Shown one piece after another: positions 471 through 64,000 of a stretch of 64,000 nt of DNA. Each line of letters starts with the position of its first letter. The stretch's first letter is position 1. Below the pieces are notes generated by a model. It was not told the DNA's origin. It saw nothing but the letters and a program-made list of their open reading frames with translations, and did no database searches. The stretch is taken from NCBI GenBank assembly GCA_964655375.1, contig CAZZNB010000042.1, positions 8,564 through 72,563 on the forward strand, written 5' to 3'. Made by a program: the position numbers and the translations under genes. Source of the DNA: an uncultured Candidatus Saccharibacteria bacterium (GTDB lineage Bacteria; Patescibacteriota; Minisyncoccia; UBA6257; HR35).

Positions 471-471
471 T

Positions 472-2004
<1,533 letters not shown>

Positions 2005-2035
2005 TTTAAAATATCCATAACTATATTCTTAGCTG

Positions 2036-2063
2036 AGTCCAGCCCGGATAATTAAGAATCTTT
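2036..2063. repeat. Right arm of the 16S-flanking inverted repeat; candidate processing stem
   Basis: AGTCCAGCCCGGATAATTAAGAATCTTT is the reverse complement of 443-470. It lies about 30 nt after the 16S 3' end. Confidence 0.8.
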
Positions 2064-2096
2064 TTATTTTGTAATTTTTTTATAATTTTTGTTATA

Positions 2097-2489
2097 ATGA
2101 CAATAATAATGAAAATCTTAATAGTAGAAGACGACAAATTTTTGAGATTATTATTGGAAAGAAAATTAAAAAATGAAAATTTTGAAGTTATTTCTGCAGA
2201 AGATGGAGAAGAAGCTTTAGAAAAAATTGTTACTGAAAAACCTGATCTGATTTTACTGGATATTATATTACCTAAAAAAAGCGGATTTTCTGTTTTAGAA
2301 GAAATCAATAAAGATGAAAATTTAAAAAAAATTCCTGTTTTTATAATATCAAATTTAGGACAACCAGAGGATATCGAAAGAGGAAAGAATTTAGGAGCAA
2401 AAGAATATTTTGTAAAAGCAGGTTTGTCTTTGGAAGAACTTATTAAAAAAATTAAAATCTTTGCTGTAGAATTTTTATCCACAAAATAA
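2097..2489 (+). CDS. Stand-alone response-regulator receiver protein, CheY/PilH-like
   Basis: MKILIVEDD...PDLILLDIILP...K motif set, 130 aa, no output domain. It sits next to a pilin gene. Confidence 0.8.
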   Translation: MTIIMKILIVEDDKFLRLLLERKLKNENFEVISAEDGEEALEKIVTEKPDLILLDIILPKKSGFSVLEEINKDENLKKIPVFIISNLGQPEDIERGKNLGAKEYFVKAGLSLEELIKKIKIFAVEFLSTK

Positions 2490-2518
2490 CTTGATTTTTT
2501 GTAATTTAGTATTATAAT
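2476..2518 (+). promoter_or_regulatory. Candidate sigma70-type promoter for the pilin gene, preceded by a TTATCCACA box
   Basis: TTATCCACA at 2476-2484, then 7 nt, then TTGATT at 2491-2496, a 16-nt spacer, and TATAAT at 2513-2518. Confidence 0.5.
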
Positions 2519-2579
2519 TTTATAAATAAATTAAATAATAAAATTTAAAAGGCCGTGATTAAAAATTAATTTTTTATAA

Positions 2580-3215
2580 ATGCAAAATAAAAAAGTCGGG
2601 TTTACCTTAATTGAGTTAATAGTTGTTTTAGCTATAATCGGAGTATTAGTCGGTATATTAGTGGCAGTTATAAAACCACAACAAATATTTGCAAGATTAA
2701 GAGACACACAAAGACAATCTGATTTAAATAGATTAGCAAACGCAATACAAACATATATCGCAGAATTTGCTCAAGATCCTTCTGCTATTGTTTTAACAGG
2801 AGATCCAGGAATAGGAGGGACAAACGGATGTGTAGGAGGAAGCACCTCTACAGTTTATTATTCAGCTAATACTCAACCAACTAGTACACCTTCTGGCTTT
2901 GCTCGTGTAAGAGCTTCAACATCTACAGCAGTTGATGGTACAGGTTGGTTACCAGTTAAGTTTGCTTCAGCAACAACACTTAATTTGGCTGCTTTACCTA
3001 TTGATCCAAGAAATTCTAATTATGATGCTAACCCATCTTTTTATTACACTTATGCTTGCAGAACTGATTTTAATTTCGAATTAAATGCTAATCTAGAAGT
3101 AATGACTGATGCAGAACAAAATGATGGTGGGGATATTACCACCCTGTATGAAGTAGGCCCAGATAAAACTATATTACCTACTACAACATCTGCTAACTTT
3201 TATCCTAATCCTTAA
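2580..3215 (+). CDS. Type IV pilin-like protein, class III signal peptide
   Basis: N-terminus MQNKKVGFTLIELIVVLAIIGVL. The C-terminal part is Thr/Ser/Gly-rich. G+C content is higher than in neighbouring genes. Confidence 0.8.
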   Translation: MQNKKVGFTLIELIVVLAIIGVLVGILVAVIKPQQIFARLRDTQRQSDLNRLANAIQTYIAEFAQDPSAIVLTGDPGIGGTNGCVGGSTSTVYYSANTQPTSTPSGFARVRASTSTAVDGTGWLPVKFASATTLNLAALPIDPRNSNYDANPSFYYTYACRTDFNFELNANLEVMTDAEQNDGGDITTLYEVGPDKTILPTTTSANFYPNP

Positions 3216-5873: not shown

Positions 5874-6418
5874 AAAAAATCTCTTGGCAAGTTCAGTTTT
5901 TCTATTGGTAAATTTGCCAATTTTTCTAAAATTTCCTTAAATTTATTTTTAGCCCCCTCCCATTTTATAAGTTTATTTTTAGATAGTTTTTTTAAGATTA
6001 TCTCTTCGGCTTTTTTTCTTATTTTATCTTGAATTCCTATCCTCATTCTCCAGATTTCTGTGCCACAATTTTTATAAATTGATTCAACTCCTTTATGCAT
6101 AGAACTTGATTGATCAAAAGTAAATTTTATATAAAGAAAAGGAAGATCTGCTTCATCATGAATAATTAAGGTTTCTTGCGATTTTATTTTAAATAAAGAT
6201 AACACCTCTTTCAAAGCTTTACCAGATTCGTTCATATATGTTTTCCCAATGGCAAGATAAAGATTTTTATATTTTCCTACAATAGAAAATTTGTTTTCTT
6301 TTACGGGCTTTAAATAAAGTTCAATCAAATCTCTTCCAAAATTATGTGGAGTATTTTTAAATTTTTCTTCAGGATTTCCTAAGCCAAAAATTAATTTGAT
6401 TTTTGAGTGATTTTTCAT
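5864..6418 (-). CDS. pth: Peptidyl-tRNA hydrolase
   Basis: N-terminus LIFGLGNPE...Y..TPHN.G; 184 aa. Confidence 0.85.
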   Translation of the reverse strand: MKNHSKIKLIFGLGNPEEKFKNTPHNFGRDLIELYLKPVKENKFSIVGKYKNLYLAIGKTYMNESGKALKEVLSLFKIKSQETLIIHDEADLPFLYIKFTFDQSSSMHKGVESIYKNCGTEIWRMRIGIQDKIRKKAEEIILKKLSKNKLIKWEGAKNKFKEILEKLANLPIEKLNLPRDFFYK

Positions 6419-8917: not shown

Positions 8918-10077
8918 GAAATTTTTATTTTGGATTAGATTTAGGACATTATGAGATAAAATTTACTATTTTAGAAGAAACTTATGATGGGAGGTTAATA
9001 TCTTATAATACCTCTCTAAAAAATGAATATTTTAGGAAAAATGATATAATAGATCAAGAAAACCTAGTCTCTTTATTAAGTAATATTTTAGAAAATACAT
9101 TAGAAACTTTTGATATTAAAAAGATTGATAAACTTAATGTTAGTTTAACATTGCCTAGTTTTCAGAAACATGTACAAAAAGGACACGCTATATTTGAAGA
9201 TAATGTTAAGGAAGAAGACATTAAAAAAACTATAAGAACTGCTAAAAACTTTTTGCTTTTGAACAATCAAGAAATCTTAATTGAGGAACCTTTAAGATTT
9301 TTAATAGATGGCATACAGGAAGTAAGAGATCCTTTAGGGTTTGCAGGTAAAAGATTGGACGCAGATGTTCTTTTTATAACTTGTTATAAATCTCTTTATG
9401 AAAAAATTAAAAATCTTTTTAAAACCTTGAATTTAGAAATAACTAACATTTTCCCCTCTATTTATTCTTCTAGTAAAGTTTGTTTATCTAAAAAAGATAA
9501 AGAGATAGGAGTAGGCCTGATTGATATCGGTGGTGAAACTACAAGTATAGGAATTTTTAATGAAGGAAAACTTGTTGAGATGATAGTATTTGATTTTGGT
9601 TCAGAGATTTTATACCAAGATTTAGCTTTATATTTAAAAGTAGATCTTGAAGAAATAGAAAAAATTAAAACAGAATTACATAAACCACCAACTACTGTAG
9701 GAGGGAAAATAAATAAAAAAGAAGAAAAATTAAAACAACAAATTTTCAAGTTTATAGAAAAAAAATTAAAAGAATATTTTGAAGAATTTAAGATTAAAGA
9801 TTATATAAAGAATATTAAAAAAGAATATAAATTACCAGCAGGCTTAGTAATGATAGGAGGCTTTTCTTTGTATGAAAATAGTTTAAATTTGCTAAAAAAT
9901 ATTTTAGAAATTTCAGTAAAATTTCCTAAAGATGAACTTAATATATTTGAAAATGAGTATGAAGTAAGAAAGTTTTCAGCCTCAGCAGGTTCGGCTCTAA
10001 TATCAAAAGAATTTTCAAGAGAATATGGTTTACTTGAAAAAATTAAAAAATTCTTTTATAGTTTTTGGACTAAGTAG
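8914..10077 (+). CDS. Actin-fold ATPase, FtsA/PilM-like (likely FtsA)
   Basis: Motifs FGLDLGHYEIKF, GLIDIGGETTSIGIF and LVMIGGFS. A separate PilM is encoded at 47697. Confidence 0.5.
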   Translation: MRNFYFGLDLGHYEIKFTILEETYDGRLISYNTSLKNEYFRKNDIIDQENLVSLLSNILENTLETFDIKKIDKLNVSLTLPSFQKHVQKGHAIFEDNVKEEDIKKTIRTAKNFLLLNNQEILIEEPLRFLIDGIQEVRDPLGFAGKRLDADVLFITCYKSLYEKIKNLFKTLNLEITNIFPSIYSSSKVCLSKKDKEIGVGLIDIGGETTSIGIFNEGKLVEMIVFDFGSEILYQDLALYLKVDLEEIEKIKTELHKPPTTVGGKINKKEEKLKQQIFKFIEKKLKEYFEEFKIKDYIKNIKKEYKLPAGLVMIGGFSLYENSLNLLKNILEISVKFPKDELNIFENEYEVRKFSASAGSALISKEFSREYGLLEKIKKFFYSFWTK

Positions 10078-14207: not shown

Positions 14208-14713
14208 TTTCTTATTAAAATGTAATCTTTTAATTCATCTAGATCATAAAAAAAATCTGCTAACTCTTTTAATTTTACAGAAGTATTTCTTCCAAATCCA
14301 GCTATTTCTACAATATTACCTTGATTTTTTAAATATTCTACTAAAGGTGCAAAATCTCCATCACCAGATACTATTATTATTACATCTAAAAACTTAGAAA
14401 GTCTAATTGTATCTACTGCTATACCTACATCCCAATCTGCCTTTTTTTCGCCACTTGGTAAATAAATTATATCTTTGATCCTTAATTCTATTCCTTTTAA
14501 AATTAAAGCTTCAAAAAACGAAATCTCTTTAGGACTAAGATCGGATTTTATAACATAAGCGATGCTTCTTATAAGATTCCTTCCTTGGTTTAAAATTTCA
14601 ACTAATTTCCCAAAATCTACATTTTTCCCGTAAAAATTTTTTGCAGAATGATAAATATTCTGGGTATCAATGAAAATACCTACTCTTTGTGAAGAAGAAG
14701 CAAATGGATTCAT
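14204..14713 (-). CDS. NYN-domain (LabA-like, PIN-fold) predicted RNase
   Basis: VGIFIDTQN...[10 protein letters not shown]. The protein is translationally coupled between rpsO and pnp. Confidence 0.7.
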
Positions 14714-15923: not shown

Positions 15924-15933
15924 ATTTTAATTT

Positions 15934-15984
15934 GGTCGAAGAAATGAGGCAGGCTTAAAAGCCGTAAGGCCTCATGAGATCAAA
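15934..15984 (+). promoter_or_regulatory. Candidate L10 leader, an autoregulatory 5' UTR structure
   Basis: Hairpin ATGAGGCAGGCTTAAAAGCCGTAAGGCCTCAT at 15944-15975 immediately upstream of rplJ. This is the position where the L10(L12) leader is normally found. Confidence 0.45.
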
Positions 15985-16494
15985 ATGAAGACAAGGGAAG
16001 AAAAACAAAAAATTATAGAAGAATTAAAACATTTTTTTGAAAGATCGAAGAAGATTTTTTTTATTTGCTTATCTAATATAAATTTTGAAATCCAAAGTTC
16101 TTTAAGAGATCAAATTAAAAAAGCTGGAGGTATTTTTAGAGTGGTCAAAAAAACTTTATTAAAATTAGCTAATAAAAATTTAGATTTAGAAGGAGATGAA
16201 TTTAAAGTACCCCTAGGAATAATTTTTGATTTCAATGATTTAAACAATATTGAAATATTTAAAATTCTTACAGAATTTAATAAAACAAAAAATTTAGTAT
16301 TAGTACAAGCTTTAGTAGGTAATAAAATATTAAGACCAGAAGAAATAATTAAAATAGGCAATTTGCCACCTAAAGAAGTATTAATTCAAAAATATAATAT
16401 AATTTTGAAATCTTTATTAAGAAAATTAGTTCTAACTTTAAAAAATCCTATAATAAAATTAAATCTGGTCGTAAATAATGTTAAAAAGAAATAA
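15985..16494 (+). CDS. rplJ: Ribosomal protein L10
   Basis: N-terminal KTREEKQKII.EL sequence and gene context. Confidence 0.85.
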   Translation: MKTREEKQKIIEELKHFFERSKKIFFICLSNINFEIQSSLRDQIKKAGGIFRVVKKTLLKLANKNLDLEGDEFKVPLGIIFDFNDLNNIEIFKILTEFNKTKNLVLVQALVGNKILRPEEIIKIGNLPPKEVLIQKYNIILKSLLRKLVLTLKNPIIKLNLVVNNVKKK

Positions 16495-16868: not shown

Positions 16869-16916
16869 AATATTTTTTAAAATCTTAAAAGGTCGTGATT
16901 AAAATTAATTTTCAAA

Positions 16917-17171
16917 ATGGAAAATAAAAATTTAGTTACAATAGTCGTTGTATTAGTAGTTCTTGTCGTTTTAGGTTTATTAGCTTGGTGGTATTTGCAA
17001 CAAAGAGCTCAAGTAGCTCCTACACCAACATCTATTCCAACAGAAGTTCCTCAGCCACCAGTTCCTCCAGCTCCAGAAATGGTTCCACCTGCTCCCGAAG
17101 GGACTGTAAGTCCTGAAGTTCCTGCACCAGAAGGAGTTCCTACACCAGAAGCACCAGTTCCAGAGCCATAA
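16917..17171 (+). CDS. Small membrane-anchored protein with a Pro-rich (PAPE/VPxP) repeat tail
   Basis: N-terminal TM helix followed by a PPVPPAPEMVPPAPE...VPAPEGVPTPEAPVPEP tail. The AAGGTCG 5' element lies upstream and a hairpin terminator lies downstream. Confidence 0.5.
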   Translation: MENKNLVTIVVVLVVLVVLGLLAWWYLQQRAQVAPTPTSIPTEVPQPPVPPAPEMVPPAPEGTVSPEVPAPEGVPTPEAPVPEP

Positions 17172-23057: not shown

Positions 23058-25221
23058 TTATATTTTCTTTAAATTCTTCTATATTTTCAATTAATATTTT
23101 GCGAGGTTTAGTTCCCTCCTGTGGGCCTACTATTCCTTTTTCTTCTAAAATATCCAAAATTCTAGCTGCTCTTGAATATCCTATCTTTAATTTTCTTTGT
23201 AAAAGCGAAGTAGAAGCCTTCCCTGTTTCTAAAATTATTTGAAATGCAGCTTTAACTAATTCCTCCTCTGTCTCTTCAGTTTCTAAAGTATCTTTTGGTT
23301 TTTCATATTCTTCTAAAGAAATTTCTTCTTTTTCAAAATCTTCTTTTTCTAAAGCTTGTTTTGCCCAAAAATCAACAATCCTTTCTATCTCTTTTTCTGT
23401 AACAAGTGGTGCCTGTATTCTTTTCATGCCGCCAAATATATTACTTATAAAAAGCATATCTCCTGCACCTATTAATTTTTCAGCTCCACTATAATCTAAG
23501 ACAGTTCTTGAATCAACTTGAGAAGCAACTTTGAAACATATCCTATTAGGAATATTAGCTTTGATTAAACCCGTAACAACATTTACTGAAGGCCTTTGTG
23601 TAGCTAAAACTAAATGGATCCCTGTTGCTCGTGCCATTTGAGCTAATCTAACTATAGCAGATTCTATAAGGTTTCCTTGTTTTATCATAAGGTCAGCCAT
23701 CTCATCTATAATAAAGATAATTCTCGGCATTATTTTCCTCTTTTTTTGAATTTGTAACTTATTATAAGAATCAATATCGCGCACTCTATAATTTTGAAAT
23801 TCTTTATATCTTTTTTCCATTTCATCTATCAACCAGTTCATCACTGAAACAACTTTTTTGACATCTAAAATAGGATCCATCAGAAGATGGGGCAAATTTT
23901 CATATCTAACAAGCTCTATCCTTTTAGGATCTACTAATACTAAATTTAAAACTTCTGGTGTGTTTTTCATTAAGAGAGATATTAATAAAGAATGAATAAA
24001 AACTGATTTTCCTGCGCCTGTAGTTCCAGCTATCAAAATATGTGGCATAAGCGCAAGATCCGCATAAAATGGCTCTCCTGTTATTAATCTTCCTAAGGGG
24101 AAAAGTAATAAACTTTCACTTTCCAAAAATTCAGGGTTTTCAATTAAAGATCTTAATCTTACAATTGCTGATTTAATATTTGGAACCTCAATCCCTATTA
24201 AGGCCCTTCCAGGAATAGGAGCTTCCATTCTTATATTTTGGACTGCTAAGGCTAAAGCTAAATCATTTTGCAAAGCTAAAATTTTAGAAAGTTTTACTCC
24301 CTCTGGCGGTTTTATTGCATATCTTGTTACAGTTGGCCCAATTGTAACCTCTACTACCTCTACATTAATTCCAAAATTTTCAAATGTAGTTTTAATAATT
24401 TCTATATTTTCTTTAATATCACCGCTATCAGGCCTGCTTTCTGTTTTATCTAATAAAGAAATAGGTGGTAGTTCCCATGATGTTTTTATTGGCAATTTTT
24501 TCAACCTTATTTCTTCTTTAACTTCTTGTTTTATTTTTGTTGGCCTTATGATTTCCGGAGACTTTGTAATTTCCTTCTTTTCTTTAATCTCCTTCTTTAC
24601 TTCTTTTGTATAATCTTCTATTTCAACTCCCTCCTTTTTGAATCTTTGTAAAATTAAACTTAAAATTTCTGAAAAGGGTTTTTGGAAAATAATACTTAAA
24701 GATATAAATGATAAAATAATTAAAACAATAGCCAACCCTAATCTTCCTAAATAATTTTCAAAAGATAATAACCATTTACCAATAACCCCTCCATCTTGAA
24801 AAATAATTTCAGAAAAAACAGAGAACACTAAAAACAAAACTAAAAGAGCTAGCGAACTACTTATCTTCCAATTAATATTAAATCTTAATAACCAGCTTAT
24901 TCCTAAAAATAGAAATAGTAAAATTAGTCCAAAATGTGATATTCCAAAAATTTTAATAATAAAATTTTTATAATAATTTCCTAAAACTCCGCCCTTATTA
25001 AAGTCTGAAATGACTGTAAAGATTGATAAAAATATAAATAGCCATCCTAAAATCTCTGTAAACAAATAGCTGTCTTTTAATTTATTTAAGGCCTCTAAAA
25101 TCTCTTTTATTTTTTGAGGCTTTTCTTTATTGTTTTTTTTCATAAAAATATTATAAAACTTGACAAAAAAATATATAAGCTTTAAAATTTTATTAGAAAT
25201 TTGAAATTTAGTTATCCACAA
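23038..25221 (-). CDS. ftsK: DNA translocase FtsK/SpoIIIE
   Basis: N-terminal TM helices, Walker A AGTTGAGKSVF and a gamma winged-helix domain at the C-terminus. The likely true start is the MKKNNKEK methionine near 25143. Confidence 0.9.
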   Translation of the reverse strand: MWITKFQISNKILKLIYFFVKFYNIFMKKNNKEKPQKIKEILEALNKLKDSYLFTEILGWLFIFLSIFTVISDFNKGGVLGNYYKNFIIKIFGISHFGLILLFLFLGISWLLRFNINWKISSSLALLVLFLVFSVFSEIIFQDGGVIGKWLLSFENYLGRLGLAIVLIILSFISLSIIFQKPFSEILSLILQRFKKEGVEIEDYTKEVKKEIKEKKEITKSPEIIRPTKIKQEVKEEIRLKKLPIKTSWELPPISLLDKTESRPDSGDIKENIEIIKTTFENFGINVEVVEVTIGPTVTRYAIKPPEGVKLSKILALQNDLALALAVQNIRMEAPIPGRALIGIEVPNIKSAIVRLRSLIENPEFLESESLLLFPLGRLITGEPFYADLALMPHILIAGTTGAGKSVFIHSLLISLLMKNTPEVLNLVLVDPKRIELVRYENLPHLLMDPILDVKKVVSVMNWLIDEMEKRYKEFQNYRVRDIDSYNKLQIQKKRKIMPRIIFIIDEMADLMIKQGNLIESAIVRLAQMARATGIHLVLATQRPSVNVVTGLIKANIPNRICFKVASQVDSRTVLDYSGAEKLIGAGDMLFISNIFGGMKRIQAPLVTEKEIERIVDFWAKQALEKEDFEKEEISLEEYEKPKDTLETEETEEELVKAAFQIILETGKASTSLLQRKLKIGYSRAARILDILEEKGIVGPQEGTKPRKILIENIEEFKENINGSEIE

Positions 25222-25256: not shown

Positions 25257-25373
25257 TATTCTAAATAACAATTAAGGTCGCAATTAAATAATTAAATTAA
25301 TAAATTGATTAACAAATAACCTACGCTCGTGCCCATAATTGTGGCAGAGCAATAAGGTCGATTAAAAAATAAT

Positions 25374-27335
25374 ATGGAAATGAAAAAATCTTTAGTTTAC
25401 CTTGTAGCCTTTGCTACTTTATTTTATTTTCTATCACCAGTCGGTTTATTAAAAGCACAAACTTGTGATCCAGACGCTTTAAGCGCTGTTAAAAATCCTC
25501 AAAATGTTTTAAGGTTTGGTGCAAGAAATTCAGCAGTTAGAAACTTACAAGCTTGTTTAATAGAAGCAGGATATAATATTCCTGCAGGTGCTACAGGCTA
25601 TTATGGTACTCAAACAAGAAGTGCAGTAAAAGAATTTTATGCGGAATGGTATGGAGCATGGCATGGAAATTGGGTAGGTCCTCAAGGAGTAAGTCAACTT
25701 GTAAGTCTTGTTAAAGGTGTACAAGAAGAAGTTGTAACAGAACAACCTGAACAACCAACAACAGGAATTTCACCAGATTTATTAGCTCAAGTATTACAAA
25801 AAATTCAGGCTGGTGATATTCAAGGAGCTTTAAGCTTATTATTAGCTGCCTTAGGAGGTGCTCAACTTCCTCCAACAACACCTGAACAACCTACAGCTGA
25901 GCAACCAACACAACCTGAGCTTGCAGGAGAAGCAACAGTAGAAGTTAGGCTAGCAGCAGTTCCAGGTGGTGGTGTGGTTATAAAAGAAGGTGAATCAGCT
26001 GATGTTTTAGGTGTTAGAGTTATTTCTAAAAATGCACCTTCTGAAGTTCAAAGATTAAGAATGGTTTTGACCTCTAATGTAGTACCTACAAAATTGTTCA
26101 ATTCCTTTGATCTATATGTTGGTAATGAAAAAGTTGCTTCTCTTCCTGCAAATGAATATAATCGAACTGACGTCTCAACATATGAATACACATTTACAGG
26201 CTTAAAAGTAAGAGTACCTGCTAATGGAGAAGTAACTTTAGTTGTAAGAGTTAATGTCAACCCAACAGTAGATAGCGGAGATATTAATAATGCTGGTACC
26301 TTATCTTTAGAAGTTAGAAGTGGCGACTTAAGAGCTGTAGATGGCGCTGGAATTCAACACACTCCTAGCGTAACTGGTACAGTAAAAAGAGAGTTTTCTG
26401 TAGAAAAAATCACTCCATCTGGAGTAGCTTTAGTAATCTACAAAGATCAAGCATCACCTGCTTCAAATAATTTTGCTGCTGATGCAAACAGAGATGTTAA
26501 AAATGTAGAACTTGTAAGATTTGTTTTAAGAGCAGATAATGATACTCTAAAGGTATTAAAAATAGAAATTCTTCCTACTTTTAGTAACTTAACTGTATCT
26601 TCTCTTAAGTTAGTTGATGCTAATGATAATACTATTGATAGTGTAACTAATGTTACTTCTGGGACAACCACTGAATTTGCTGCAGTAGATTTTGCTACTC
26701 CATTAATAACTATTAATAAAGATCAAAAAGTTGTTTTGAAAGTTGTGGGTGACTTAAAAGTTGATCAAAGTCTAGCTACTGAAACACCAGCTACCATTCA
26801 AGTGACAGTAACAGCAGCTGAAGCAGAACGAGCATCAGATCAAGGCGGTCAACCTTCTACTGGTAGTGCTACAGGAGATACTCAATATATCTATAGGGTA
26901 GTAGCTGCTCAGTGGAAAGTATTAGAAGCTTTAGCTTCTGCTACAAGGGGTGAAAATGAGCCCACTTCTACATTAAATGCAGTCTTTAAAGTTCAAATAA
27001 CTGCTCAAAGAGGCGATGTATATATCCCTCAAAGTGGTGCCTTTACTGCTTCATCTACAGGAGCAGCTACAGTCGATATGGGAAGCCCAGATGTTACTCC
27101 AATTAGCGGAGTTGAAACTAGTGGTGCCTATTACGTAGTTAGAAATGGAAATACTGGTGTATTAGAAGTAAAATTTGCTAAGACACCAGATTCATGGACT
27201 CCAGGATGGTATCAAGTTAAATTAAATACTATGAAGTGGGATAATGACGAGACTCCTAGTACAGAAATGTCTACAACTTTCCCAGGAACTGTTGAAACTA
27301 AGACTCTAACAAATTCTGTGTATATTTCTAAGTAA
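25374..27335 (+). CDS. Secreted surface or cell-wall-associated protein with an N-terminal peptidoglycan-binding (PG_binding_1-like) domain, a Pro/Thr/Gln linker and a beta-rich body
   Basis: Signal peptide, then a PG-binding-like segment (LRFGARNSAVRNLQ...GYYGTQTRSAVKEF) and a linker (EQPEQPTT...PPTTPEQPTAEQPTQPE). G+C content is visibly higher than in flanking genes. A strong terminator follows. Confidence 0.6.
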   Translation: MEMKKSLVYLVAFATLFYFLSPVGLLKAQTCDPDALSAVKNPQNVLRFGARNSAVRNLQACLIEAGYNIPAGATGYYGTQTRSAVKEFYAEWYGAWHGNWVGPQGVSQLVSLVKGVQEEVVTEQPEQPTTGISPDLLAQVLQKIQAGDIQGALSLLLAALGGAQLPPTTPEQPTAEQPTQPELAGEATVEVRLAAVPGGGVVIKEGESADVLGVRVISKNAPSEVQRLRMVLTSNVVPTKLFNSFDLYVGNEKVASLPANEYNRTDVSTYEYTFTGLKVRVPANGEVTLVVRVNVNPTVDSGDINNAGTLSLEVRSGDLRAVDGAGIQHTPSVTGTVKREFSVEKITPSGVALVIYKDQASPASNNFAADANRDVKNVELVRFVLRADNDTLKVLKIEILPTFSNLTVSSLKLVDANDNTIDSVTNVTSGTTTEFAAVDFATPLITINKDQKVVLKVVGDLKVDQSLATETPATIQVTVTAAEAERASDQGGQPSTGSATGDTQYIYRVVAAQWKVLEALASATRGENEPTSTLNAVFKVQITAQRGDVYIPQSGAFTASSTGAATVDMGSPDVTPISGVETSGAYYVVRNGNTGVLEVKFAKTPDSWTPGWYQVKLNTMKWDNDETPSTEMSTTFPGTVETKTLTNSVYISK

Positions 27336-29789: not shown

Positions 29790-29865
29790 TTTAGTATATA
29801 ATCTTATTTTTTAATGAAAAAATAAATATTTTTTCTAGTATAAAGCTTTTATTCAAAAAGTTTAT

Positions 29866-36680: not shown

Positions 36681-36709
36681 TTGACTTTTGATTAAATATG
36701 GATTACAAT
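36681..36709 (+). promoter_or_regulatory. Candidate sigma70-type promoter for tuf
   Basis: TTGACT, a 17-nt spacer, then TACAAT. An AAGGTCG element follows 13 nt downstream. Confidence 0.5.
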
Positions 36710-36749
36710 TTTACAATAATTTAAGGTCGCAATAAAAATATATCTAAAA

Positions 36750-37949
36750 ATGGCAGCAGCAAAATTTGAAAGAACAAAACCCCATATAAATGTAGGTACA
36801 ATAGGACACATTGATCATGGGAAAACTACATTGACGGCAGCTATTCAACATGTATTAAAGTTAAAAGGTCTTATAGAAAAAGCAGAAACAGTAGAAGAGA
36901 TAGATAATGCTCCAGAAGAAAAAACAAGAGGTATTACAATAAATATTCATCATTCTGAATACGAAACAGAAAAAAGACACTATGCTCATATTGATTGCCC
37001 TGGACATGCTGATTATGTAAAAAATATGATAATTGGCGCTGCTCAAATGGATGGCGCAATTTTAGTTGTAGCTGCTAATGATGGTGTTATGGCACAGACA
37101 AGAGAACATATTCTTTTAGCAAGACAAGTAAATGTACCTGCAATGATTGTTTTTATCAATAAAATAGATGCAGTCCCTGATAAGGAACTTATAGAATTAG
37201 TAGAAGAAGATGTTAGAAATGAACTAAAAAAATATGGATATCCTGGAGATGAAATTCCAGTTATAAAAGGATCCGCCTTAAAAGCTTTAGAAGCTAAAAG
37301 CTTAGAAGATGAATGGACAAAACCCATTTTAGAATTATTAGATGCTTTAGACAATTATATTCCTGAACCCATAAGAGATGTAGATAAACCATTTTTAATG
37401 CCTATCGAAGATGTATTCTCTATACAAGGTAGAGGTACAGTAGTTACAGGAAGAGTAGAAAGAGGAATATTGAAGTTAAATGAAGAAGTAGAAATTGTGG
37501 GCTTAAGAGAAAAACCAATAAAAACTACAGTAACAGGAATTCAAATGTTTCATAAAGATTTAGATGAAGCTCATCCAGGTGATAATGTTGGTCTTCTTTT
37601 AAGAGGAATAGCGAAAGAAGAAGTAGAAAGAGGTATGGTTGTAGCAAAGCCAGGGACTATTACACCTCATATAGAATTTGAAGCAGAGGTTTATGTGTTA
37701 ACTCCAGAAGAAGGAGGAAGACATACACCATTTCATACAGGATATAAACCTCAATTTTACTTCAGAACAACAGATGTGACAGGCGAAATATTTTTACCAG
37801 AAGGAATCGAAGCAGTTATGCCAGGAGATAATGCTACATTTAAGGTGAAATTGATTTATCCTATTGCTTTAGAAGAAGGATTAAGATTCGCTATTAGAGA
37901 AGGAGGTAAAACAGTAGGAGCAGGTGTAGTAACAAAAGTAATCAAATGA
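36750..37949 (+). CDS. tuf: Elongation factor Tu
   Basis: [32 protein letters not shown]; 399 aa. Confidence 0.97.
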
Positions 37950-54163: not shown

Positions 54164-54207
54164 TTATCCACAATTTAATTTTCAATTAAATTTTTTTATT
54201 GTATAAT
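54164..54207 (+). promoter_or_regulatory. Candidate promoter for the pilin gene, preceded by a TTATCCACA box
   Basis: TTATCCACA at 54164-54172, then 8 nt, then TTCAAT, a 15-nt spacer, and TATAAT at 54202-54207. AGAGGTCG lies at 54226-54233. Confidence 0.45.
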
Positions 54208-54262
54208 TTATTATATAAATAATTTAGAGGTCGAATTAATAAAAAAATAAAATAATTAAAAA

Positions 54263-54742
54263 ATGAATAAAAAAGCATTTACTTTAGTCGAATTAGCAGT
54301 AGTTCTTTTAGTAATAGGTATTTTAGCAGGTCTATTATTAAGAAACTTAGGAGGCTTTACATCTTCAGCTAGGGATCAAAGAAGAATAGGAGATTTAAGG
54401 AATGTTTCTGCGTATATTACATCTTATTATTCAAGACAAGGTCAATATCCAACTGCCACCAATTGGGCTGATTTAGAAAATCAATTAAGGAATGCAGGTG
54501 TATTAGGGCCTGGCGTTAATTTACCAAGAGATCCATCTTCTCCTAATAGAGATTATGAATATGCTCATTGTACTTCAGCAGGAGGAGTAATCACTAATTA
54601 TATATTGAGAGCTGTCTTAGAAGCTTCAAGAGACCAAGCTCCTCAATTATACCAAGGTGCTATAACAAACATCCCACCTGAACTAACGTGCAATCCTAGT
54701 ATTACTTGTGGTGGAAATAACGAGTATTGCCTCTTATTCTAA
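54263..54742 (+). CDS. Type IV pilin, candidate major pilin
   Basis: MNKKAFTLVELAVVLLVIGILAGLLL with C-terminal Cys pairs. Relatively G+C-rich. Confidence 0.8.
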   Translation: MNKKAFTLVELAVVLLVIGILAGLLLRNLGGFTSSARDQRRIGDLRNVSAYITSYYSRQGQYPTATNWADLENQLRNAGVLGPGVNLPRDPSSPNRDYEYAHCTSAGGVITNYILRAVLEASRDQAPQLYQGAITNIPPELTCNPSITCGGNNEYCLLF

Positions 54743-63041: not shown

Positions 63042-63110
63042 TTTGAGCTATTTAAAAATATTTATAATATTATAATATGAGGGCCGAAATTTATATTTAC
63101 AAAATTTACC

Positions 63111-64000
63111 ATGAACATTGTATTTCAACTGTCTTTTATGATATTGTATTTTGTAATTTTTACTATAGGTATAATAGTAGGGATTTTAATAAGATATCTT
63201 TTTATCAGGAAAAAAACAGAATCTATAGAATACAAACTTAAGTTAAGAATAGAAGAGCTTAAAAGGAAAGAACAAGAACTTTTACTTGAAGCAGAAAAGA
63301 AGGCATTTGAATTGTTAGAATCTGCTAAAAAAGAAAAAGAAGAGATATTAAAAGATTTGAAAATAAGAGAAGAAAGAATAATTAAAAAAGAAGAACTTAT
63401 TGAGAAGAAGGAAAGAGAAATAGAGGAAGAAAAAGAAAAGTATAAAAATCTGATGCAAGAAATAGAGAATAAAGAGAAGGAATATTTAAGATTAAAAGAA
63501 GAATATGAAAGCAAATTACAAAATATTGCAGAAATAAGCAAAGAAAAAGCCCTTGAAATTTTATTTCAGCAGCTAGAGAAGGAAAATGAAAATATTTTAG
63601 CTAAAAGAATAAGTAAATTGTTAAATAACCAAAGAGAAGAAATAGAAAAGAAAGCCCAAGAGGTGATTTTAGAAGTCCTTCCTAGATATAGTAGATCAGT
63701 GGCGAGTGAATTTAATATAACTGTTGTAAATCTTCCAAGCGAAGAAATGAAAGGCAGAATTATAGGAAAAGAAGGTAGAAATATTAGATATTTTGAAAAA
63801 TTAGCAGGCGTGCAATTGATTATAGATGAAACCCCAGAATTAGTAACAATTTCTTCTTTTGATCCTATAAGAAGAGAGATAGCTAGATTAGCATTAGAAA
63901 AATTGATTAAAGACGGGAGAATTCAACCAGCCACTATAGAAGAAGCAATTTTATCTGCTAAGAATCAAGTAGAGGAAGAAATTAAAAAAGCTGGTAAATC
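63111..64000 (+). CDS. rny: Ribonuclease Y, 5' partial running off the window end; not in the supplied ORF track
   Basis: My own translation gives an N-terminal TM (MNIVFQLSFMILYFVIFTIGIIVGILI), a long coiled coil and a KH domain (GRIIGKEGRNIRYFEKLAGVQLIIDETPE). There is no stop codon before position 64000. Confidence 0.8.
   Translation, partial: MNIVFQLSFMILYFVIFTIGIIVGILIRYLFIRKKTESIEYKLKLRIEELKRKEQELLLEAEKKAFELLESAKKEKEEILKDLKIREERIIKKEELIEKKEREIEEEKEKYKNLMQEIENKEKEYLRLKEEYESKLQNIAEISKEKALEILFQQLEKENENILAKRISKLLNNQREEIEKKAQEVILEVLPRYSRSVASEFNITVVNLPSEEMKGRIIGKEGRNIRYFEKLAGVQLIIDETPELVTISSFDPIRREIARLALEKLIKDGRIQPATIEEAILSAKNQVEEEIKKAGK

Follow-up and report, generated by a model that had tools for sequence, protein, structure and literature searches.

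A conserved GGYCG element in the mRNA leaders of Parcubacteria that lack an anti-Shine-Dalgarno sequence

A short sequence element, GGYCG, recurs in the 5' leaders of protein-coding genes in a 64,000-nucleotide stretch of DNA from an uncultured bacterium (contig CAZZNB010000042.1, positions 8,564 to 72,563), referred to below as the window. Judged by its EF-Tu homologues, the host lineage belongs to the Minisyncoccia/Parcubacteria, a part of the Patescibacteria, also called the candidate phyla radiation (CPR). The window is a very compact genome segment with 27% G+C, and most of its genes that have no promoter of their own overlap or abut the preceding gene. The 16S ribosomal RNA (rRNA) gene is located at positions 471–2005. 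The motif is a genuine, conserved and clade-specific leader signal. The anti-Shine-Dalgarno sequence is missing from the 16S rRNA of this lineage, and the motif probably serves as a replacement signal for ribosome docking or for mRNA control.

The leader copies in the window lie on the plus strand. The first, AAAAGGCCGTGATTAAAA (2547–2564), contains the variant GGCCG at 2551 and is situated 24 nt before the ATG of a pilin gene (2580–3215), about 30 nt after the promoter TTGATT-N-TATAAT. The leader of rplJ, which encodes ribosomal protein L10, is structured and carries TTGGTCGAAG (15932–15941) at its 5' edge, 10 nt after a TATAAT box and 46 nt before the ATG at 15985. Upstream of the gene at 16917–17171, which encodes an 84-residue transmembrane, Pro-rich mini-protein, AAAAGGTCGTGATTAAAA (16887–16904) follows TTGAAT-17-TAAAAT by 7 nt and leaves 21 nt to the ATG. 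Two copies precede the gene at 25374, whose product is a 653-residue PG_binding_1 surface protein: the distal copy TTAAGGTCGCAATTAAA (25272–25288) lies 19 nt after TATAAT and 93 nt before the ATG, and the proximal copy AATAAGGTCGATTAAAA (25351–25367) lies 13 nt before it. They are separated by a leader hairpin, GCTCGTGCC-CATAATTGT-GGCAGAGC (25325–25350). The tuf leader contains TTAAGGTCGCAATAAAA (36721–36737), 15 nt after TTGACT-17-TACAAT (36681–36709) and 20 nt before the ATG at 36750. A second pilin gene (54263–54742), of the N_methyl type like the first, is preceded at 29 nt by AGAGGTCGAATTAATAAAA (54226–54244). Finally, GAGGGCCGAAATTTA (63079–63093), again with the variant GGCCG (63082), lies 24 nt before the ATG at 63111 of rny, the RNase Y gene, which runs past the end of the window; the adjacent gene on the minus strand encodes the phosphoglycerate mutase iPGM. 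All eight copies that the original prediction had listed are thus present at the coordinates given there, and the genes downstream of them are the ones it had named: two pilins, the Pro-rich mini-protein, the surface protein (twice), tuf, rny and rplJ.

An alignment of 25 instances gives a consensus of purines at −2 and −1, the core GGYCG (22 with T and 3 with C at the pyrimidine), a spacer of about 3 nt and a weak TTAA. The latter occurs at +5 to +18 in 18 of the 25 instances, against a background of 32%. The consensus proposed earlier, AGGYCG followed by (A/T)ATTAAA, is therefore essentially right. Counted over the entire window, AGGYCG is unremarkable (12 found, 7.2 expected), since some of the copies come from the 16S rRNA. 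GGTCG has seven copies in the window outside rRNA; six of them fall within intergenic sequence totalling 2,965 nt, and each of the six is in the sense orientation relative to the next gene. The genome could be extended by 11 kb, to 75 kb, via contigs with identical proteins. In this 75-kb sequence, seven of the nine GGTCG copies outside RNA genes are upstream of a gene and in sense, a placement that covers 1.4% of positions (hypergeometric p = 3.6e-12). A blind enrichment analysis of 5-mers in the same sequence placed GGTCG among the words of the −10 box, and it was the sole word near the top that contains G or C. The added 11 kb supplied one further upstream-sense copy, AGAGGTCGAATTAAAG, located 22 nt before the ATG of the HU gene at window-equivalent position 64707 of the right extension (L091, reverse complement). 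This copy is nearly identical to the pilin copy at 54226 and represents an out-of-sample match for the upstream-sense placement; the only other new copy is antisense within a coding region.

Motif density was also pooled over 15 AT-rich sources, namely the extended genome and 14 loci of relatives, with tRNAs masked. GGTCG was found at 2.1 per kb in upstream-sense sequence, 0.09 per kb in coding sequence in sense, 0.03 per kb in coding sequence in antisense and 0.17 per kb in other intergenic DNA. The claim that the element is enriched upstream of genes over background was borne out in the 75-kb sequence by the blind 5-mer analysis, and the 75-kb enrichment together with the pooled densities excludes chance occurrence, which had been considered unlikely. 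AGGUCG also appears in the variable loop and T-stem of tRNAs, a resemblance that was judged to be a coincidence. A literature search found no description of the motif.

In this genome, GGYCG and the ATG are separated by 13, 20, 21, 22, 24, 24, 29 and 46 nt, with 93 nt for the distal second copy. Overall, the gap from motif to ATG is 13–46 nt, mostly 20–33 nt. The range of 18–35 nt upstream of start codons given in the original prediction is roughly right but too narrow. The strong −35/−10 pairs of the motif-bearing genes are situated 40–80 nt upstream of the ATG, so that leaderless mRNAs were rejected for these genes. From the −10 box to the GG of the motif, the distance is 5–22 nt without a peak, and sometimes 30–57 nt from the only good promoter. 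Accordingly, the description of a 5'-leader element downstream of recognisable −35/−10 sequences holds, but its placement at or just after the transcription start was too strong. No GGYCG was found in the rRNA promoter or in any 16S leader examined, including that of the window. The unfixed distance from the −10 box and the absence of the motif from the rRNA leader point to an mRNA-specific role.

A different arrangement is found at ten motif-free genes, where TATAAT or TAAAAT ends 6–7 nt before the ATG with a sharp peak. They include those at 14710 (minus strand), 14991, 21463, 23038 (minus strand), 27673, 40042 and 48795. A −10 box so close to the ATG suggests that leaderless transcripts are widespread in this genome, and with ten genes that look leaderless, the leadered mRNAs constitute a distinct class. 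The motif is presumably restricted to mRNA leaders and confined to those leadered, presumably abundant transcripts.

The leaders themselves were analyzed by structure prediction. Those of tuf and the pilins that were tested are predicted to be unstructured, so that the motif would be single-stranded there. The rplJ leader (15926–15990), on the other hand, is predicted to form a stable fold (−20.8 kcal/mol, z = −4.5) in which GGUC pairs with GAUC beside the start codon. The orthologous rplJ leader of the related locus L219 carries GGCCGAAGAAAAGAGGC, and the closing pairing is not obviously retained in it. The rplJ leader did not match the Rfam family L10_leader (RF00557), either at the gathering threshold or at E ≤ 1, and Rfam contains no known RNA family that covers any of the motif leaders.

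The 3' tail of the 16S rRNA (1992–2005, plus strand) reads GGACCAAUUCUGUU where GGAUCACCUCCUUA is usual; in longer form, the 3' end is ...GGCGAUGGACCAAUUCUGUU. It contains no CCUCC, i.e., the anti-Shine-Dalgarno (anti-SD) sequence is absent. No Shine-Dalgarno (SD)-like sequences were found before the start codons of the window genes. The organism is indeed SD-less, as had been supposed, and loss of the anti-SD in a subgroup of Parcubacteria is a trait already recorded (PMC9297842).

Conservation of the motif was assessed in loci of relatives, designated by L and a number. Upstream of tuf, GGTCG is present in nine loci (L081–L089) that represent five distinct leader variants and whose EF-Tu proteins are 85–95% identical. 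The A/T-rich flanks of these variants cannot be aligned, and the upstream gene is a different one in two of the five. Even in two distant Parcubacteria-like contigs (69% EF-Tu identity), GGTCG or GGCCG lies 14 nt before tuf. Both copies of the surface-protein leader are retained in the orthologues of L220 and L221, which share only 44% and 31% protein identity, and the proximal copy lies 19 and 26 nt before the ATG, respectively. The hairpin of this leader is also kept in both, and in L221 both sides of the stem have changed (CUGUC/GACAG). A metagenome scan with a 16S word yielded several further Parcubacteria lineages. In other Parcubacteria, AAAAGGTCGA is located 27–28 nt before the ATG of pilin orthologues linked to the 16S gene; in the lineages with enough flanking DNA, it lies 27–33 nt upstream of genes for a pilin, an ATP-cone protein and an MscS-like protein, and the distance to the KhpA gene is 53 nt. 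The core is therefore kept upstream of tuf, pilin and surface-protein genes despite unalignable flanks.

This distribution follows the state of the 16S tail. The further Parcubacteria lineages have tails without CCUCC (GGUGAAACUUUUCUUUU, GGAAUAUUUCUUUU and GGACCAUUCAAUUU), and the same is true of every enriched locus for which a 16S sequence is available. In CPR loci that have an anti-SD or SD sequences, GGTCG is not enriched (0.63 per kb upstream, 0.70 per kb coding), and no upstream copies were found in AT-rich loci from outside the CPR. The control loci were obtained from a tuf scan of genome contigs and cover many phyla, with EF-Tu 65–72% identical. The motif is thus restricted to lineages without an anti-SD. 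As the original prediction had stated, pairing with the 16S tail does not explain the element: the tail of this organism offers only GACC, and the tails GGUGAAACUUUUCUUUU and GGAAUAUUUCUUUU of other lineages offer no complementarity.

A complementary sequence that the original prediction overlooked is found elsewhere in the 16S rRNA. CGACC occurs once in this molecule, within the 8-nt loop AUUCGACC (1314–1321) of the apical hairpin of helix 26 (h26; 1303–1332, plus strand), as placed by both an Rfam alignment and an independent fold. GGUCG(A) is complementary over 5–6 nt to the h26 loop, AUUCGACC or UAUCGACC, which makes this loop a candidate partner of the motif. Moreover, the CGACC of the h26 loop is the only CGACC common to the 16S rRNAs of all motif-bearing lineages. 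The loop positions outside the core vary between lineages, and the matching leader positions do not track them. Helix 26 touches the SD helix (PMC4611024) and lies near the OB2 domain of bS1 and the 5' end of the mRNA (PMC10123108). Tsurumaki et al. (PMC9297842) noted that positions 837–850 (Escherichia coli numbering), which span the h26 loop, show an unexpected conservation in Parcubacteria, where they have no known role. In eukaryotes, the GGG of loop IIId in the internal ribosome entry site (IRES) of hepatitis C virus (HCV) pairs with CCC in the homologous loop of 18S h26, in expansion segment 7 (ES7) (PMC3794592, PMC4756818). The insertions in the 16S genes of L143 and L122 include another h26-like hairpin, about 230 nt downstream of the first, whose loop is UCGACCC.

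Collectively, the data favour an RNA-level role tied to the loss of the anti-SD; they do not separate the options of stability or processing signal, translation enhancer and protein-binding site that had been listed for the element. The reading we prefer, tentatively and at somewhat less than even confidence, is that the motif acts at the RNA level to recruit ribosomes to leadered mRNAs, in a genome whose other transcripts look largely leaderless. The genes concerned would be those that have their own promoter and presumably abundant products, i.e., EF-Tu, L10/L12, HU, the pilins, the cell-surface protein and RNase Y. On their otherwise featureless, A/U-rich leaders, the motif would take over the function of the SD sequence and hold the 30S subunit 13–45 nt upstream of the AUG. 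As to the partner, GGUCG(A) could pair with the apical loop of h26 (5'-UCGACC-3'), which in known ribosome structures adjoins the usual site of the SD helix and of the 5' mRNA. That leadered mRNAs of anti-SD-less Parcubacteria dock on the 30S subunit by this very pairing is an unlikely though specific proposal, and it makes up about half of the confidence given to the broader recruitment reading.

Several observations weigh against ribosome recruitment, and against the h26 pairing in particular. The spacing to the AUG is broad (13–46 nt, once 93 nt), unlike that of SD sequences. Only about nine of some 76 genes bear the motif, and GGTCG is not avoided in coding regions (15 observed, 12.9 expected). 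The surface-protein orthologue of L219 has only the degenerate forms GGTCA and GGCG, and some SD-poor Parcubacteria-like loci (L010) have no motif. Regarding h26, the loop YCGACC is common across many phyla, including SD users, and is therefore not a lineage-specific adaptation. No CPR-like (low-GC) 16S rRNA from which h26 was recovered departs from the core CGACC, leaving no covariation between loop and motif to compare. One CGACC per 1.5 kb of rRNA corresponds to the chance expectation; only its location is notable, and the chance of its falling in a loop that counts as relevant is, by a rough estimate, about 2–4%. GGCCG is found in 3 of the 25 tabulated instances (pilin at 2551, rny at 63082 and the tuf gene of L015), as well as in the rplJ leader of L219. 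These variants would place a C·A mismatch in the middle of a 5-bp helix, so that complementarity fails for them. Finally, the flanks of the core show no selection for longer complementarity to the h26 loop among the 25 instances.

A rather less probable explanation is that a trans-acting protein binds GGYCG and thereby co-regulates the genes of abundant proteins, without any pairing to rRNA. It could be an RNA-binder of the KH (K homology), S1 or CSD (cold shock domain) type, such as KhpA/B, a ribosomal protein or an initiation factor, or else an asymmetric DNA-binding regulator. That the middle base need only be a pyrimidine (22 T, 3 C) is more in keeping with a recognition pocket than with Watson-Crick pairing to A. 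The very short invariant core, preceded by purines (−1 and −2) and followed at a loose spacing by TTAA, is likewise consistent with a protein site. So is the flexible position relative to both the −10 box and the ATG. Copies before the genes of the RNA-binding proteins RNase Y and KhpA (L147) hint at autoregulation. A protein site does not, however, predict the strict link with anti-SD loss. The motif is also non-palindromic and always in sense, which is atypical of dimeric DNA-binding regulators yet compatible with RNA-binding proteins. One known site of this kind, that of CsrA/RsmA, was rejected since the core GGYCG contains no GGA and the tested tuf and pilin leaders are unstructured.

Less likely still is a determinant of mRNA stability or processing, either a 5'-proximal stabiliser or an RNase Y cleavage site by which abundant transcripts are matured or metered. 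In A/U-rich RNA, RNase Y reportedly cuts preferentially after G, and the motif is the sole G-containing patch in leaders that otherwise consist of A and U. It lies within approximately the first 15 nt of most predicted transcripts, and a variant copy precedes rny itself. The two copies and the conserved hairpin of the surface-protein leader are also reminiscent of known long-lived mRNAs of surface proteins. Nevertheless, it is hard to see why the leaders of the most-needed mRNAs should conserve a cleavage site, and the confinement of the motif to anti-SD-less lineages is left unexplained. The known stabilisers of the STAB-SD type, which are SD-like, need pairing with the 3' end of the 16S rRNA, which is impossible here.

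The motif might instead act as promoter-proximal DNA that marks the transcription start or the initial transcribed sequence, but this is improbable. In Bacillus subtilis, a GG at +1 is reported to couple strong promoters to the level of GTP. The GG of the motif could occupy +1 at 16891, L154:2053, L089 and L122:9698, where a −10-like hexamer lies 6–9 nt upstream, and the genes concerned are growth-related. Yet the distance from the −10 box to the GG ranges over 5–22 nt without a peak and reaches 30–57 nt in some cases, whereas the ATGs of the leaderless-like genes peak sharply at 6–7 nt from the same box. Furthermore, second copies occur 30–90 nt inside the same leader, and the 16S promoter, a classic target of such control, does not have the motif. 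A fixed core promoter element, such as a discriminator, start element or core recognition element, was rejected because the distance between the −10 box and GG is not fixed.

A boxA-like signal for Nus antitermination in protein-coding leaders, suggested by a flexibly positioned leader element before translation genes and by some tuf leaders that read GGTCG(T/C)TTTTAAT and resemble GCUCUUUAA, is largely refuted and most improbable: the invariant GGYCG differs from the invariant part of boxA (consensus G(C/U)UCUUUAAC/GAYAA), many of the targets are single short genes, and the rRNA leaders of the same lineages, where recognisable, have a separate canonical G(C/T)TCTTTGA(T/C)AAT, with no GGYCG in any 16S leader examined.

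The recruitment reading can further be compared with known systems. Like an SD sequence, the motif is a short, purine-rich, G-containing element on the sense strand of the 5' leader and a plausible ribosome-docking site; it has a 5–6 nt complement in 16S rRNA, and the strength of that pairing would be comparable to that of a 5-bp SD helix. It differs from SD in lacking complementarity to the 16S tail, in its distance of 13–46 nt from the AUG (4–12 nt for SD), in its presence on about one gene in eight and in not being avoided in coding regions. SD itself was rejected on these grounds: the complement in the tail is at most GACC and is missing in other lineages, the spacing reaches 46 nt and once 93 nt, and about nine of some 76 genes are involved.

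HCV-like IRES elements offer a closer parallel as to the partner, since loop IIId also belongs to a leader element with a G-rich core that is complementary to the apical loop of h26, and such docking would bypass the usual route. Those elements are eukaryotic or viral, and the triplet that pairs forms part of a large, structured IRES, whereas GGYCG is a bare linear motif in an unstructured leader, whose pairing with h26 is so far a coincidence of sequence. The epsilon element of T7 gene 10 and A/U-rich leaders that bind bS1 are non-SD enhancers that lie upstream of the SD position and make a contact other than with the anti-SD. They resemble the motif as leader elements upstream of the usual SD position, but work beside an SD on ribosomes that have the anti-SD, and their sequences are unrelated to GGYCG. 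None of these enhancers is known to be conserved as a clade-wide signature. STAB-SD sequences of the Bacillus cryIIIA type are SD-like, are found at a long distance upstream of the start codon, close to the 5' end of strongly expressed mRNAs, and presumably hold a ribosomal subunit. The motif is likewise a far-upstream, 5'-proximal leader element, but STAB-SD requires base pairing to the 3' end of the 16S rRNA, and a stabiliser of this type was rejected because the required complementarity is absent. In Bacteroidetes, too, a whole lineage does without SD; there, the anti-SD is kept but sequestered and no G/C-containing leader motif has been reported (PMC7797042), while here the anti-SD is gone and a distinct motif is present.

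Translation start without SD and anti-SD is an open question in bacteria, and for Parcubacteria both anti-SD loss and the conserved h26 loop are on record without a mechanism (PMC9297842). For leadered mRNAs, the motif supplies a concrete and testable candidate for the signal that is missing, present clade-wide and with a specific putative partner in rRNA. If the pairing with h26 were true, it would represent a second, independent code of mRNA–rRNA docking in bacteria, mirroring that of HCV-type IRES elements with h26/ES7, and it would account for the unusual conservation of the h26 loop in Parcubacteria (PMC9297842). Should the motif turn out to be a protein site or a signal for decay, the abundant-protein genes that carry it would still form a regulon not described before. 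Whatever the mechanism, the motif flags promoters and leaders of those genes that are presumably expressed most strongly, and it can aid the annotation of starts and operons in uncultured tiny bacteria. It could also guide expression design if these organisms become tractable.

Some further features of the window were noted. The 16S gene is enclosed by a long processing stem, in which positions ~445–470 pair with ~2029–2060, and it is not followed by a 23S gene. The order 16S rRNA, receiver-only response regulator and pilin gene (471–3215) is kept in the distant Parcubacteria L154, L148, L143 and L122. In several Parcubacteria (L143, L122, L178, L107, L148 and L111), insertions are present in 16S genes 1.8–2.8 kb long, and these insertions include group I introns, as indicated by Rfam matches in L143.

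With regard to promoters, a DnaA-box-like word, TTATCCACA(A), has five exact copies, three of which (2475–2483, 25212–25220 and 54164–54172, plus strand) lie 7–8 nt upstream of the −35 box of both pilin promoters and the surface-protein promoter. Its relatives (TATCCACAAT and, twice, TTTTCCACAAT) occupy the equivalent place in L220 and L219 but not in the pilin promoters of more distant lineages. The word may be an activator site for cell-surface genes. The rpoB leader, which contains no GGYCG, has a three-codon mini-open reading frame, ATG AAA AAA TAA, at 29814–29825; its ATG and TAA are kept in L081, L085, L087 and L088, where the inner codons have changed. A conserved A/U hairpin (29842–29863) directly abuts the rpoB ATG. 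Lastly, the tuf leaders of distant CPR loci share a hairpin of their own, GGCTGGTTGC...GCC / AGCTGGTTCAGCT, located upstream of the start in L011 (~6080–6150), L015 (~9890–9960) and L001.

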